From IMG/VR virus record IMGVR_UViG_2565956624_000008: DNA of 64,000 nucleotides; one strand, given 5' to 3'. Positions 3,525 to 11,289 of this stretch are shown in pieces (the first letter of the stretch is position 1; each line of letters starts with the position of its first letter). This stretch comes from a virus (Duplodnaviria > Heunggongvirae > Uroviricota > Caudoviricetes). A program made the position numbers and the translations under genes. Below the pieces are notes generated by a model, which was given only the letters and a program-made list of their open reading frames with translations, was not told the origin of the DNA and searched no databases.

Positions 3525-3880
3525 AGCACCACGTCCTGTGTGATAGTTATATCCCTGATACGAATGGATATTTTCAACTTATCAAAAGCATCTCCCTCGG
3601 CTACTGACAAGCCAGAAATCGGTATGTCAGGTAAATCTACCGTCAGTTTTTGCAACAGCATTGCCTCAACCGCAATTTGAACATGCGACAAGTTGGTCGG
3701 TTCGTGTTTAAACAGCGGTAAAACATTGCCCCATGACGGATCTCCGTATACCTCACCCTGATAAGTGTTTAGCCACTCATATAAACGAGCGCCCCAGGCC
3801 TCCTCCTGGGACTCATACGTTTTTACGCCGGATAACTCCAGCGTCAGCAAAGGATCAATTTCGTTATTGTTGGCCATCAA
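3521..3880 (-). CDS. Small baseplate protein (PmgA / gpW-like position)
   Basis: 119-aa ORF whose start overlaps the sit stop (ATGA-type junction). Confidence 0.35.
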   Translation of the reverse strand: MMANNNEIDPLLTLELSGVKTYESQEEAWGARLYEWLNTYQGEVYGDPSWGNVLPLFKHEPTNLSHVQIAVEAMLLQKLTVDLPDIPISGLSVAEGDAFDKLKISIRIRDITITQDVVL

Positions 3881-6800
3881 TCAACTCTCGCGTAGTCATT
3901 CATCAACGGATCATCAATTGACAGTGGTACCGTGCGCATAACGCCCGGCTGAGGCGTGCTGACCTTTACGACAGTTCCCTGGCCTTTCGCCGAGTCTTTG
4001 GTGTGCTCTTCAATCCTGGCAAGCAATGAGGTCATCTGCGCAAACAGCCGCTTCGTTTCACCATCAAGTGAAACGGTATTATCAGCCAACTGCATTGTCG
4101 GCTTGGCACCGGAACCGCCAAGGTCACTAATAACCTGCCCGTCTATCTGCATACGACCGGTTGGTTGCTGCAAATCGTTGGCGGCAGTCGTCACCTGGGA
4201 CGTGGAGGCTGGTTCAGGCGCATTATTTTTCCGCATCCCCGGCGAGTTGCGGAGTTTATCGAATAGTCCATCAATCCCCATTTGTGCGCCGAGATGGTCA
4301 AAGTAACTTGAGTTGTTGGCCACCGGACGCGCCTCTTCAACTGGCATCGGAGTATCAACATACACATTGCCAGCTGCTGTTGCGGTCCCCTTCTCTCGTG
4401 CGCGTTCTTCTAGCGTTCCCTGAACGACTTCCCGACGCATCCCCCGGCCATTCATGAATTTGTTGACCAGATCGTTAACGCCAACAGCATTGCCGATTTT
4501 GTCGACCAGACCGCCTTTCTCAAACGGGCTATCACCAGGGGTAAACGCCAGGCCAGTATACTGATCGATAACAGCGTTATCAGGCAGTGGTCCCCTCACT
4601 CCATATTGCGCCCCACCCTGTGCTCCTGCTCCAGGTGTATAGATTTCACCACCTAAATAGCGAGCACGATGAGTATTGACCTTGATCGCGTACTCACGGT
4701 TTTCTTTCGATAAGTCACCGGTGCCTTTTTTCCACTTATTAATAGTGCCAAACCCAGCATTATATGCAGTGATGGCCTCGTTTAAGTCTCCATTGGCTTG
4801 CTTAAGATACTTGCTCATGAGAAGAGCCGCAGCTTCTGCCGATTTCACAGGATCAAACGATTCACCTTCAGCTAAGCCAGTCTCTTCACGAGCAATCCCC
4901 GTGAACTGAAACATCCCCAGAGCACCGGTTTGGGATTTTGCATACGGATTACCACCAGATTCAGTTGCAGCAATCGCGTAAAGAGTGCCTTCTGGAAGAC
5001 CGTATTTATTCTCTAGTTCGGCAAAATACGGAGCCAACTTATCGAGATTTGCCTTACCTTCAGCGCCAAGACTTCCGACTTTTACATCTAAGTTGCCATT
5101 GTTGTAAGTATCCGCAGCTTTCTGAATGTCATTCCTGGTGCCAGTGGTATTAAGCGACGATGATGACGAGCTATTTTGACCAATAGCTTTATCAATTTTC
5201 TGCAACGCGCTATTGCCCGTTTCTACGGCATTTGCATTGATAATCTGATTGGCAGTTTGTTTAACTGTTTTATTGCTATCTTTCGCTGTGTCCAGTGCCG
5301 CATTTATCACGCGGGTAGCAATATTACTCTGTTTGGCATCGGATTCAGTTTTAGAATCAGACGTCTCCTGGTGGCTATTAACCGGAGCTTTTAACTCCGG
5401 AGTGATTTCTTTCGCATTAGCCTCGCCGATCGGATTGGGTATTTTTGATACAATCATTGCCGCAGGGGTATTTTTAACGGCATCAACCGCTGCATCTAAT
5501 GCTTTACCAGGTAAATTTTTAACCCCATCCCAAATATTACCAGCCGCCTCTTTAATGTGTTTCCCTGGGTTCTTAATGAAATCAATTGCACTATCAATTG
5601 CATCACTGAAAACCTGTTTCAGGTTATCAACAGTAAAGAAGTCTTTGATGGCATCCAGCTTTTCAAGCAGCTTATTAGATGTATCGCTAAACCATGCTGA
5701 AACAGCATCACCAATCTTTGCTGTGTAATCTTCGAACTTGGTAGAAATGGTGTCGCCAAGGTTAGAAATATATGTTTCTAAGTTGGTAATCCCACTATCA
5801 ATGGCCTGGGCAATACTTTCCGTCGAAAATGATTGCAACATATTGCCGATATCCTCAAATCCAAGTGATTTGAGAACCTCACCAATGGCGCTGCTAATAC
5901 CAGATACCAGTCCCCCCATATCAAGAACATTGGCTAACGTATAAGCGGCTTTTTGCTGGAATGATGGCTCTTGTCCTGATTTAAGCCCAAACGCTCGACG
6001 TTGCGCTTCTGTATCATTCCAACCGGTTACCGCATCATAAATACCTCCAGCCACTGTGCCGACTAAGGGAATTGCGCGTAACGCCCCTTTACCAACTGCC
6101 TTTAATCCAAATTTACCTGCTGCCCGGGCAGCCAAATCTCCACCTTCATGGGCGATAGTCTTCTTGCCACCACCGCGTAGCATTCCTACAAGTTTCTTTG
6201 CCCCCAGAGCGCCAAAAGCGAGTGCTCCAGCTTTTTTCAGCATGCCACGCCCCATTAACAACGACGCGACGCCACCGGCCCCCTTCCCTAACAGGCTAAA
6301 TAGTTTGGACAGCAAGCCGCCCTTCTTTTTCCCGGTGTTTTTGGCTATCTGATCAAGGGCGCTGAGAATCTTGTCATTGCCCTCTTTAATTTCGCTGGTC
6401 TGCTCCTGAAGTTCCTGAACCGTCCGTTTTTGGGTGTTAACCTGAACGACATCGGCACTATTTTGCGATTTACGCCTAAAAAAACCTTTTCTACGGCTGT
6501 TATCGTCATTGCCACGAATCACATCGGCAATAGACTTTCTGGCGCCATTAAGCGATCCACCAACTTCTTTTGATATCCCGCCAAGCTCCTTCCCTGCTGC
6601 CCACAATGGACCAGCAACGGCATAACCTAACGCATCGACGGCACGAGTCTCTGAAGGGTTACCTATGCCTTCAGCTACTTTTGACAGTTTTTTTAATAAA
6701 CCTGATTCAGCATTTAGACGCTCATCATCCTCTTTGCGCCTGGCCTTTTCAGCACGTTCAGCACGGGCATCTTCCGCTGCGGCCTTACTCCCTGACTTTC

Positions 6801-7566
6801 CAATAAAACGACCACGCGCATCGCGTTGGTTTTGGCTTTTTTGCGCACCGCCTTTTTGATCGAACATTTCGCGAGCGTGTTCGGCTGCTTCGGTCCGTTG
6901 TGCCTTTATATCCTCTGATATAGCCTTCCTGCGTCTTTTTTTACCCTTTGGTGTAGTTGATTTGGCCTGCTGTTCCTGTTGAGCAATGCCCTCCTGAACT
7001 ACACGAGAAACGTCCCCTAAATTAAGCCGTTTCATTGCGTCAACAATAGGGTCTACTGATGGCGCATTGGCCACAAAGTCTGGCCGGGAATTTTCGATTG
7101 TTCGATTTAATGCCGACACACTGCGAGATACTGGGTCAACCGTTGCAACGCGTTCCCCTTTCAAATCACGAGCGAGTTTGACCGTTTCTAACCGCTGTGC
7201 TTTAACATCCTCTGTTATTGCCTCTCTTCGTCTATTTGGGGGATTGTGCGCTGTTGGTGCAGCCTGCTGTTCACGGTTAGTGACTTTGTCCTCCCGTATA
7301 CGAGAAACGTCCCCTAAATTAAGCCGTTTCATTGCGTCAACAATAGAGTCCACTGATGGCACATTGGTCACAAAGTCAGGACGTGAATTTTCGATTGTGC
7401 GATTTAATGCCGACACACTGCGAGAGACAGGATCAACAGTTGCAACTCGTTCCCCTTTCAAATCTTCAACAGCTTCCCGAATACCTGCAAGCTCTTCCAG
7501 CTCTTTCGCGCTGGCGGTTTCAACTGTCCTTATAACATCGTCAATATTGGCGTTTTTTCTTTCCAT
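3877..7566 (-). CDS. sit: Sit-like tape-measure / injection protein with lytic transglycosylase (SLT) domain
   Basis: 1229-aa ORF; SLT-type motif GNPYAKSQTGALGMFQF; long Ala/Gly/Lys-rich low-complexity stretches; internal 99-aa tandem repeat; position upstream of baseplate genes as in P1. Confidence 0.75.
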   Translation of the reverse strand: MERKNANIDDVIRTVETASAKELEELAGIREAVEDLKGERVATVDPVSRSVSALNRTIENSRPDFVTNVPSVDSIVDAMKRLNLGDVSRIREDKVTNREQQAAPTAHNPPNRRREAITEDVKAQRLETVKLARDLKGERVATVDPVSRSVSALNRTIENSRPDFVANAPSVDPIVDAMKRLNLGDVSRVVQEGIAQQEQQAKSTTPKGKKRRRKAISEDIKAQRTEAAEHAREMFDQKGGAQKSQNQRDARGRFIGKSGSKAAAEDARAERAEKARRKEDDERLNAESGLLKKLSKVAEGIGNPSETRAVDALGYAVAGPLWAAGKELGGISKEVGGSLNGARKSIADVIRGNDDNSRRKGFFRRKSQNSADVVQVNTQKRTVQELQEQTSEIKEGNDKILSALDQIAKNTGKKKGGLLSKLFSLLGKGAGGVASLLMGRGMLKKAGALAFGALGAKKLVGMLRGGGKKTIAHEGGDLAARAAGKFGLKAVGKGALRAIPLVGTVAGGIYDAVTGWNDTEAQRRAFGLKSGQEPSFQQKAAYTLANVLDMGGLVSGISSAIGEVLKSLGFEDIGNMLQSFSTESIAQAIDSGITNLETYISNLGDTISTKFEDYTAKIGDAVSAWFSDTSNKLLEKLDAIKDFFTVDNLKQVFSDAIDSAIDFIKNPGKHIKEAAGNIWDGVKNLPGKALDAAVDAVKNTPAAMIVSKIPNPIGEANAKEITPELKAPVNSHQETSDSKTESDAKQSNIATRVINAALDTAKDSNKTVKQTANQIINANAVETGNSALQKIDKAIGQNSSSSSSLNTTGTRNDIQKAADTYNNGNLDVKVGSLGAEGKANLDKLAPYFAELENKYGLPEGTLYAIAATESGGNPYAKSQTGALGMFQFTGIAREETGLAEGESFDPVKSAEAAALLMSKYLKQANGDLNEAITAYNAGFGTINKWKKGTGDLSKENREYAIKVNTHRARYLGGEIYTPGAGAQGGAQYGVRGPLPDNAVIDQYTGLAFTPGDSPFEKGGLVDKIGNAVGVNDLVNKFMNGRGMRREVVQGTLEERAREKGTATAAGNVYVDTPMPVEEARPVANNSSYFDHLGAQMGIDGLFDKLRNSPGMRKNNAPEPASTSQVTTAANDLQQPTGRMQIDGQVISDLGGSGAKPTMQLADNTVSLDGETKRLFAQMTSLLARIEEHTKDSAKGQGTVVKVSTPQPGVMRTVPLSIDDPLMNDYARVD

Positions 7567-9165: not shown

Positions 9166-9756
<591 letters not shown>

Positions 9757-9790
9757 TTAACCGATTCTACGAGTAGTCATTTGTGACAGG

Positions 9791-10267
9791 TTATTTTGCG
9801 CGCTTCAGGCAGCCATCTTCAGGTGCCGCGTTGAAAAGCTCTGCGGCCTTACGTAGCGTAAATGTTGCGATTTTTTTTCCGTCTACGTATGCATCGAATG
9901 TTTTAACTTCCATATCAGGGGTATCTGACCAAAAACCATACCAGTAACTATCACCCACAGAGGAACCGATAGAACTGATAGGATATTCATCATCACCAAC
10001 TTTCAGCGTTATTTGTTCTTTTTTAGCATCAAATGACTCACCGCCAGGTTCTGTTTTCATGAGAGTGAGTAGTCGTGTTCCTACTTGATTGGGATCCGTA
10101 TTATTAAATCCAACATCGCACTCAAATGTAAGCGTATAATTATCTTTGCTGGAAACAGCATAAGAGCGAACGCCATGAGTCTCGCTGGTGGACCATTTGC
10201 TTACATTTGCCATTGATGAAAACGGAGTAAGCAAAGCAAGAATTAGAAAATATCGTTTGATGCGCAT
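9791..10267 (-). CDS. Secreted protein (signal peptide)
   Basis: N-terminus MRIKRYFLILALLTPFSSMA is a typical Sec signal; 158 aa. Confidence 0.4.
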   Translation of the reverse strand: MRIKRYFLILALLTPFSSMANVSKWSTSETHGVRSYAVSSKDNYTLTFECDVGFNNTDPNQVGTRLLTLMKTEPGGESFDAKKEQITLKVGDDEYPISSIGSSVGDSYWYGFWSDTPDMEVKTFDAYVDGKKIATFTLRKAAELFNAAPEDGCLKRAK

Positions 10268-10318
10268 TAATTTATCTCCTTTGGATATTAATATTTTAAT
10301 TAGTTAACCACCATATAT

Positions 10319-10993
10319 TCACCATTCATAGGGTAAATTAAGCGCTTTTAAACCTTGCTGGAAAGTATTAAGAGAGCCGTTTTTTTGTTGTTCCATTTTT
10401 TCGCGTGCAGCTTTCTCATACTGCTCCATCCGTTGGTTATACTCTTGCAATTCCTCCGGGGAGAGGTTTCCCATTGGGGAGTTTGTACCCGGCCCCCTGG
10501 CCCGTTCTTCAAGCGTACCCTGAACGTTTTGATGGCGCATTCCCGGGGCGTTTCTGATTGAATCAATGCCATTTCTTCCAACGTCTTCTTTATTAACGGC
10601 ATTGCTCGCCACCAGTACGCCCCAGCTAGGGATAGCAAAATCAGGAGCGGTTTCGCATGCCTTTACCATATAATCGAAAGAGCTTCGATTGATCTCGTTT
10701 GCGTCGGGATTTAATAGGCGAGAATATTGATATTTAGCATTTTCGTTGGTTGCGACTTTATACAGTTCTTGCTGCACCATCGCTTCAGAAAGTTTAAGGC
10801 GTTTCATATCTGATAGTAACTTCTTGCGCATGGATTCGTCTTGACTGACAGCAAAACCGTAAACGTGCCCAAGGTATTTCGTATAATCGGTACAAATCTC
10901 CTTTACGCTTGATGCTGCATTAACAGTCCCAGCCATAAATAATAACGGTAGTAATAGTTTTCTCATTATAACCTCACCTGCCTTATAACTCAT
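10319..10993 (-). CDS. Periplasmic protein, candidate superinfection-exclusion (Sim-like); likely true start ~10966 (MRKLLL)
   Basis: Signal peptide MRKLLLPLLFMAGTVNA; size about 25 kDa; sits beside immI where P1 carries sim; C-terminal motif GMRHQNVQGTLEERARGPGT resembles a Sit segment. Confidence 0.45.
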   Translation of the reverse strand: MSYKAGEVIMRKLLLPLLFMAGTVNAASSVKEICTDYTKYLGHVYGFAVSQDESMRKKLLSDMKRLKLSEAMVQQELYKVATNENAKYQYSRLLNPDANEINRSSFDYMVKACETAPDFAIPSWGVLVASNAVNKEDVGRNGIDSIRNAPGMRHQNVQGTLEERARGPGTNSPMGNLSPEELQEYNQRMEQYEKAAREKMEQQKNGSLNTFQQGLKALNLPYEW

Positions 10994-11062
10994 TTAGGGT
11001 ACATATTTTCGCCTTTAAAAAAAAGAGGTTATTAGATCCAATTGTGTATTTATTAAGCATAT

Positions 11063-11079
11063 AATGCTCTAATAAATTT
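11063..11079 (+). promoter_or_regulatory. C1 operator-like site upstream of immI (Op51 position)
   Basis: AATGCTCTAATAAATTT, one mismatch to the P1 C1 operator consensus ATTGCTCTAATAAATTT. Confidence 0.6.
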
Positions 11080-11289
11080 GTATTTTTAAGTCGCGAATGC
11101 TATCTTTTCGCATCATGTTGACCTTTTAATCGTTCAGGCTTATAGTTCCGCCGTCGTAGCAAATTCTGCGACCGGGTTTAGCAGCCTGAATGATTGTGCG
11201 GACAGCCGCAGATATCCGATATTGCGGTATTTTTGTGTCCGTAAAACCGCGTTACGCCCAAATTATGGTGGGGCGTGATGGGGAGGCTT

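Follow-up and report, generated by a model that had tools for sequence, protein, structure and literature searches.

A predicted secreted SimA-type protein at the sim locus of a P1-like phage-plasmid shares a short conserved motif with the tape-measure protein Sit

Why would a phage-plasmid encode, at its superimmunity locus, a small protein that is apparently secreted and that carries a piece of the phage's own injection protein? The question arises from a 64-kb stretch of viral DNA (hereafter the window), which by its ORF content and nucleotide matches is a P1-like phage-plasmid (Punavirus). Its minus strand carries, in order, sit, pmgB, tub, pmgC, and then two small ORFs (9791-10267 and 10319-10993), past which lie the plus-strand immI region (c4, icd, ant), kilA, and repL. 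The genes of the interval are as follows.

9166-9732, minus strand: pmgC
9791-10267, minus strand: second secreted protein, 158 aa (phrog_3429), with the signal peptide MRIKRYFLILALLTPFSSMA followed by NV
10319-10993, minus strand: full-length simA-type gene, 224 aa from the first ATG (phrog_3933, 'SimA domain protein')

The full-length simA site is the sim (superimmunity) locus, which adjoins immI and lies between immI and the late tail operon, and the GC content of the sim region is below that of its surroundings. The gene layout agrees with the original prediction, which had placed the secreted ORF, with its motif at nt 10484-10552, next to immI and a second secreted ORF at 9791-10267 beside it; the signal peptide of the latter is recognized by inspection. 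In nucleotide searches, the whole 9700-11100 segment is present in only one deposited phage, vB_EcoM-Ro157c2YLVW (98.3% identity), and P1 matches its flanks and nothing else. The sim region counts among the variable regions known in P1-like plasmids and is a recombination hotspot (PMC9603915); P1 can do without the sim genes in lytic growth, whereas sit is essential (PMC10695390).

The 10319-10993 ORF probably starts at M10 (nt 10966), just before which there is a GGTGAGG Shine-Dalgarno sequence; this gives a protein of 215 aa, the form in which RefSeq annotates a homologue. We distinguish four parts.

10916-10966, minus strand: Sec-type signal peptide MRKLLLPLLFMAGTVNA followed by ASS (sequence inspection)
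10607-10915, minus strand: conserved all-helical N-terminal domain, aa 27-129 (alignments A1, A2, and A5)
10484-10552, minus strand: Sit-like linear motif NAPGMRHQNVQGTLEERARGPGT, aa 148-170 (BLASTP, profiles, and alignment)
10343-10459, minus strand: variable C-terminal tail, aa 179-217 (one long helix in AF2)

The putative signal peptide has, by inspection only, a canonical n-h-c organization with VNA/A, and neither a lipobox cysteine nor a hydrophobic segment past it was found by inspection or in the alignments, which predicts a soluble mature protein located in the periplasm. The N-terminal domain contains two invariant cysteines, C34 and C113, and is probably disulfide-bonded; its mean pairwise identity in the family alignments is 0.57. 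An AF2 model of the 224-aa protein, made with 13 homologues in the input, has low-confidence helices at residues 31-129 and a coil at the motif, and its mean pLDDT of only 40 leaves it unusable, too poor for fold comparison. The C-terminal tail is missing from a natural 172-aa variant that ends directly after the motif, and in other SimA lineages a Cys...Cys module takes its place.

Pfam, NCBIfam, PADLOC, and PDB sequence searches with the SimA-type protein gave nothing above threshold. We considered a PTP-like phytase domain (PF14566), which matches partially over residues 34-118 (window 10640-10894) and also appears among the precomputed domains of close SimA homologues, and rejected it: the score of 26.4 bits is below the gathering threshold (cutoff 27), and the match is probably not meaningful because the catalytic C-x5-R loop is absent, with ETAPDF following the invariant C113 and no arginine.

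The 'Sim-like' label of the original prediction is misleading: the ORF has no similarity to SimC (BLASTP best E=29), and the gene is instead the full-length version of P1 simA. The ORF matches phrog_3933 with E=4.8e-137, residues 10-224 aligning to profile positions 1-213 of 213, and NCBI names its homologues 'simA domain protein'. P1 simA occupies the same position and is near-identical to the window gene through the upstream region, the signal peptide, and the first ~45 codons (about 97% at the DNA level), and the two diverge beyond codon ~45-46 (window 10800-11000 compared with P1, L001:2974-3284). The P1 gene reaches a TAA after 52 codons and is followed by simB and simC; the recombination junction is marked by the ATG with which P1 simB starts, as it coincides with M55 of the long SimA. 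From the shared 5′ part followed by divergence and the early TAA, P1 SimA (P1_gp043, 52 aa) reads as the stump of a full-length gene. On this comparison, the 52-aa simA of P1 is a truncated remnant of a widespread 215/224-aa gene, and the window holds the intact form, which adds the N-terminal domain, the motif, and the tail to what the P1 stub retains. The P1 record gives SimA a "putative accessory function" and assigns superimmunity to simC.

Members of the SimA family (phrog_3933) are found in P1-like elements of Escherichia, Salmonella, Klebsiella, Cronobacter, and Pantoea. The genome search matched 251 genomes overall, nearly all on plasmids; of 5,426 complete E. coli genomes, 81 carry full-length simA, and among the matches listed, all records annotate it as "hypothetical protein." Our literature search returned no mention of either the motif or full-length SimA. 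We also observed E. coli-type simA genes of 99-100% identity on short GTDB contigs (L161 and L163) that bear the labels Candidatus Paenibacillus intestinavium and Bacillota MAG, and a Sit C-terminal fragment (P0032) labeled Bacillus altitudinis, all of which are probably binning or contamination artefacts.

The region upstream of the gene resembles that of P1 closely enough for features of the P1 record to be moved over by alignment.

10994-11110, minus strand: upstream control region, about 97% identical to that of P1, ungapped
about 11031-11057: predicted sigma-70 promoter PsimA (P1-record annotation)
about 11063-11079: C1 operator Oc4 (P1-record annotation)

In a consensus promoter scan of the minus strand upstream of the simA-type gene, no candidate reached threshold, and it is solely from the conserved predicted PsimA region of P1 that we infer expression of SimA in the prophage.

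The partner in the motif match is Sit, the tape-measure protein of P1 (PMC9024508), which is not resolved in P1 cryo-EM structures (PMC12810830). Four of its features are relevant here.

3877-7566, minus strand: sit, tape-measure protein with a lytic transglycosylase domain, 1229 aa (phrog_2533, E=0; Pfam SLT)
4699-5028, minus strand: SLT lytic transglycosylase domain, aa 847-956 (PF01464, E=3.3e-27; AF2 pLDDT 80-93)
4384-4452, minus strand: motif copy 1, NGRGMRREVVQGTLEERAREKGT, aa 1039-1061 (BLASTP and alignment)
4225-4248, minus strand: partial motif copy 2, NSPGMRKN, aa 1107-1114 (BLASTP and sequence)

The SimA-type ORF reads ...IRNAPGMRHQNVQGTLEERARGPGTNSPMGN... and Sit copy 1 reads ...FMNGRGMRREVVQGTLEERAREKGTATAAGN..., so that the two have in common N-x-x-G-M-R-x-x-x-V-x-G-T-L-E-E-R-A-R-x-x-G-T; a broader form of the motif, ~23-30 residues long, is N-x-x-G-M-R-x-Q-x-V-x-G-[TS]-[LM]-x-x-R-A-x-G-x-G-[TV]. 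BLASTP aligns SimA with copy 1 at E=1e-7 (identities 22/47) and with partial copy 2 at E=0.019, and a weaker similarity to Sit continues past the motif as far as N176 (nt 10466). The Smith-Waterman score of SimA against Sit is 93, compared with a mean of 40.8 (sd 5.8) for shuffled sequences (z about 9; Gumbel P about 5e-6), and none of 1000 shuffles attained it. Six controls put through the same shuffle test, the 158-aa neighbour, P1 SimB, P1 SimC, PmgC, Tub, and PmgB, gave z<=1.5, with P1 SimC at z=0.8. Among the ORFs of the window, the motif matches Sit only. The profile matches are reciprocal, with the ORF hitting the Sit family (phrog_2533) at 9e-8 and Sit hitting phrog_3933 at 1e-3; residues 138-180 of the ORF correspond to positions 929-972 of the phrog_2533 profile, the rest of which is without a match, and a Pfam search found no SLT domain in the ORF. 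The similarity between SimA and Sit is thus confirmed as real and well above chance, and on this point the original prediction, which had proposed the shared motif and a pairwise alignment with a significance estimate, is borne out.

The partial second copy in Sit, NSPGMRKN, had been predicted near nt 4380-4450; it exists, but at nt 4225-4248, the other interval being copy 1. It lies in the context ...LRNSPGMRKNN..., and the segment GIDGLFDKLR ahead of it resembles that ahead of copy 1. Relatives have two alleles at this place, RNSPGMRKNN and INARGMRSNN.

How far does the motif extend beyond these two proteins? A motif HMM run against 1.84e9 representative proteins gave 12 matches at E<=1e-3: tape-measure proteins of the Sit type, secreted proteins of the SimA type, pieces of one or the other, and two weak matches to repeat proteins that we regard as spurious. 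At the scale of this search, the motif is exclusive to the Sit-type and SimA-type families, which have ~25-30 residues in common and nothing else; unlike Sit-type proteins, SimA has no SLT domain, and at the nucleotide level the gene is not a piece of sit.

Conservation across relatives, which the original prediction had proposed as a check, is seen in both families. All aligned Sit-type proteins have, without variation, G-M-R, a glycine at the sixth residue past its arginine, and an arginine just ahead of the alanine, and this GMR...G....R core also spans two SLT subtypes and a 1367-aa relative with two full copies of the motif. Within the SimA family, pairwise identity is 0.60 in the motif, 0.36 in the linker, and 0.12 in the tail, and the Pantoea homologue retains 17 of 23 motif residues although it is 42% identical overall; from Escherichia to Pantoea, the motif is a conserved island within flexible regions of both SimA and Sit. 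A large SimA subgroup (Klebsiella, Cronobacter, and some Salmonella), however, keeps only N-A-P-G-M-R-Q-Q, the remainder being the Cys...Cys module, which indicates that the full motif is dispensable for some members of the family.

The similarity is also visible in the DNA, which the original prediction had offered as additional evidence, but this argument does not hold up. The window's SimA and Sit motif regions are 56% identical over 120 nt, with the same codon used at 6 of 18 identical residues, which is no more than amino-acid identity forces and so is not independent evidence. The picture is the same in four genome pairs (two E. coli types, Salmonella arizonae, and Pantoea), each with the same codon at 4-6 of 16-18 identical residues, so that synonymous sites are near saturation while the motif residues are kept in four lineages. 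Identical residues in mostly different codons point to protein-level selection maintaining the motif, and on this codon evidence it is kept by selection on the protein in both families. Recent DNA transfer or gene conversion, considered as a source of the similarity, is excluded by the codon comparison in the four genome pairs.

The same data bear on the suggestion that the motif in SimA is a functionless relic, a fragment of sit once captured by the nearby sim locus whose similarity is now decaying. Sit and simA are only about 3-6 kb apart, and the hotspot character of the sim locus (PMC9603915) would favor such a capture. Decay, however, is not what the sequences look like, with motif residues kept in four lineages despite near-saturated synonymous sites, with the motif better conserved than its flanks, and with its persistence in a homologue only 42% identical overall. 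This reading is strongly disfavoured, and we give it very little probability.

In Sit, motif copy 1 is positioned in a flexible stretch between the SLT domain and a C-terminal block. In an AF2 model of Sit residues 830-1229, only the SLT domain folds confidently, and everything downstream, including the motif, has a pLDDT below 50. pLDDT is likewise below 50 around the SimA copy; with both copies in an AF2-unfolded setting, which short linear binding motifs typically occupy, they look like short linear motifs in flexible segments. About the motif itself, neither AF2 model is informative. Relatives of Sit have two distinct SLT subtypes, reading ...ATESGGNPYAKSQTGALGMFQFTG... and ...SAESSAGQRTGNPVDKNGNKLSSALGAFQITKGT... 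(P0034 compared with window 3877-5079), and since the motif region downstream is the same behind either subtype, sit itself is mosaic. We also note a direct repeat in sit, of 212 nt and 84% identity (6956-7167 and 7253-7464; spacing 297 nt, or 99 codons), which was detected by a repeat search and missed by Tandem Repeats Finder. It accounts for the window Sit being 1229 aa long compared with 1140 aa in P1, and because Sit is the tape-measure protein, a longer Sit might mean a longer tail.

T4 Sp inhibits the gp5 lysozyme, and by analogy SimA could act as an inhibitor of the Sit transglycosylase: the Sit motif would be an intramolecular regulator docking on the SLT domain, and the SimA copy would bind the incoming SLT and block its cleavage of peptidoglycan. 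The spacing in Sit, with the motif about 80 residues downstream of the SLT domain, would suit such docking. AF2, however, folds the SLT domain confidently and leaves the motif undocked (pLDDT 27-45), and the occurrence of the same motif after two SLT subtypes argues against a tight fit between motif and SLT. We therefore consider SLT inhibition very unlikely.

What the locus itself says about function can be read from its variation. Sequences with a SimA N-terminus number 76 (72 loci from IMG/VR, three from phages or plasmids, and the window), and they include 61 cassettes that are complete between icd and pmgC. Full-length simA together with a member of the 158-aa secreted family occupies 43 of these 61, a simA stub with simB-simC occupies 17, and in the single remaining cassette a long simA is accompanied by a gene distantly similar to simC. 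The full-length simA cassette is a near-exclusive alternative to simB-simC at one locus. P1 SimC, a protein with a Sec signal peptide, and the window SimA, for which one is predicted, are both encoded between immI and pmgC, and both cassettes are non-core cargo; SimC differs in sequence, in having no Sit-like motif, and in belonging to the alternative cassette.

The 158-aa family, whose conserved motifs are ...F.CD... and ...DGC[LI]K, is represented beside full-length simA in 43 of 44 complete cassettes, usually downstream. In the context of Pantoea-type SimA, taken from IMG/VR and GTDB contigs, no homologue of the 158-aa protein was found beside simA. The window's 158-aa protein is unrelated to SimC, and we rejected it as a second mimic at z=1.5 against Sit. 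In one IMG/VR locus (L045:10771-11412), a long SimA with the motif and the Cys...Cys module lies beside a SimC-like gene 34% identical to P1 SimC, so both cassette types can combine. Two further loci (L004:9731-11689 and L006:10116-11174) have two extra genes on the pmgC side of those for the secreted proteins, one for a 116-aa multi-transmembrane protein and one for a ~350-aa protein that ends in an SH3 domain. Cargo directed at the envelope thus makes up the sim locus in mosaic fashion.

Another reading is that the motif is a shared envelope-targeting module with no role in exclusion, through which SimA and Sit both attach to one component of the periplasm (peptidoglycan, a chaperone, or a protease, for example). 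SimA would then be a lysogenic-conversion or envelope-modifying factor, and any effect on superinfection would be nil or incidental. Conservation of the motif in both families and its absence elsewhere fit such a module, as does a low-GC locus with secreted, membrane, and SH3-domain proteins typical of moron cargo. A host-binding module would, however, be expected in other phage or host proteins, and none was found among the 1.84e9 searched; moreover, known exclusion genes lie at this very site, and simA alternates with them. We regard this explanation as distinctly unlikely.

Because the motif is real, exclusive, and conserved at the protein level, and sits in a predicted Sec-secreted protein of the sim locus, it is a reasonable hypothesis that SimA mimics the injection protein or that both bind a common partner. 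The reading we put first, with a probability of roughly 45%, is that the SimA-type protein is a periplasmic superinfection-exclusion factor that interferes, via the motif, with Sit-dependent DNA entry; it is suggested by the predicted export, the alternation of the gene with others at an exclusion-gene locus, and the copy of an invariant motif from Sit, presumably the first protein to be expelled into the periplasm during infection. The more specific proposal that secreted SimA is a true mimic, a periplasmic decoy that displays the Sit docking motif and blocks genome entry by related phages, is possible but doubtful. Both an exclusion activity of SimA and competition as its mode of action are what we infer from sequence.

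Under the exclusion reading, the prophage would make the SimA-type protein, and its Sec signal peptide would direct it out of the cytoplasm, as a helical N-terminal domain followed by a flexible linker with the motif and a variable tail. SimA would in this way show a copy of the Sit motif in the periplasm, into which Sit itself is presumably expelled when a P1-type tail contracts, by analogy with tape-measure proteins of other phages. The SimA copy could then disturb the step at which the motif of an incoming Sit must engage its partner, which could be a host factor in the envelope, a second Sit chain, or part of the tail tip. Whichever of these it is, DNA entry of superinfecting P1-like phages would be blocked.

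Does the SimA motif track the Sit of its own genome? Motif states agree within genomes, reading GTL...GT in E. coli, GTL...GV in Salmonella, and GSM...GT in Pantoea for SimA and Sit alike, and in the identity matrix the cognate SimA-Sit pair is the best or joint best in every row, with the window SimA motif fitting the Pantoea Sit equally well as its own. Co-variation of the core motif across these three independent lineages is suggestive, at about p=0.1. Strict co-variation was rejected, as in 69 IMG/VR loci the type of SimA motif does not follow which copy-2 allele Sit has.

Lineage-concordant changes in both motifs are what would arise if a single pocket read both ligands, and this brings in direct binding: the SimA N-terminal domain would be a receptor for the motif, with its own copy as a pseudo-ligand that an incoming Sit displaces, only to be clamped in the manner of Ltp, Imm, or gp15; in a variant, the motif would mediate Sit-Sit association, and SimA would co-assemble as a poison subunit. 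The flexible linker does tether the motif to a conserved folded domain, and exclusion proteins that bind tape measures are documented (bioRxiv 10.64898/2026.03.06.709160). AF2, however, gives no confident intramolecular docking, no relation of the N-terminal domain to Ltp or Imm could be detected, nor any PDB sequence match, and nothing sets direct binding apart from competition for a third partner. We consider direct binding unlikely. Competition for the motif's partner is the simplest version of the exclusion reading and the one we think most likely, and clamping by the N-terminal domain is a serious rival to it.

Known systems offer some guidance. The Sim protein of P1, in the work of Kliem and Dreiseikelmann in 1989 and of Maillou and Dreiseikelmann in 1990, is reported to be secreted and processed and to stop infection at a stage after adsorption. 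T4 Imm binds the T4 tape-measure protein, and HK97 gp15 is proposed to do likewise (bioRxiv 10.64898/2026.03.06.709160); Ltp of S. thermophilus phage TP-J34 also targets the tape-measure protein, according to Bebeacua 2013 as cited in PMC3952083. The proposed point of action common to these three and SimA is tape-measure-dependent DNA entry after adsorption. Imm, gp15, and Ltp are membrane proteins or a lipoprotein, whereas SimA is predicted to be soluble in the periplasm with no membrane anchor, and none of the three is reported, in the sources we cite, to share sequence with the tape measure, whereas SimA carries a copy of a tape-measure motif. PADLOC, NCBIfam, and PDB sequence searches found no homology of SimA to Imm, gp15, or Ltp.

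The motif bears on how P1 DNA passes through the periplasm and across the inner membrane, a step for which we know of no host entry factor. A motif that is short, invariant, flexible, and exclusive, and that a secreted protein has copied or retained, gives an experimental handle on P1 entry, and the annotation of P1 simA is corrected to that of a remnant of a widespread gene. If mimicry is true, the ~25-residue Sit motif would be an element that engages an envelope partner needed for P1 DNA injection, and SimA would represent a new mode of superinfection exclusion, in which a prophage displays a piece of the invader's own injection protein.
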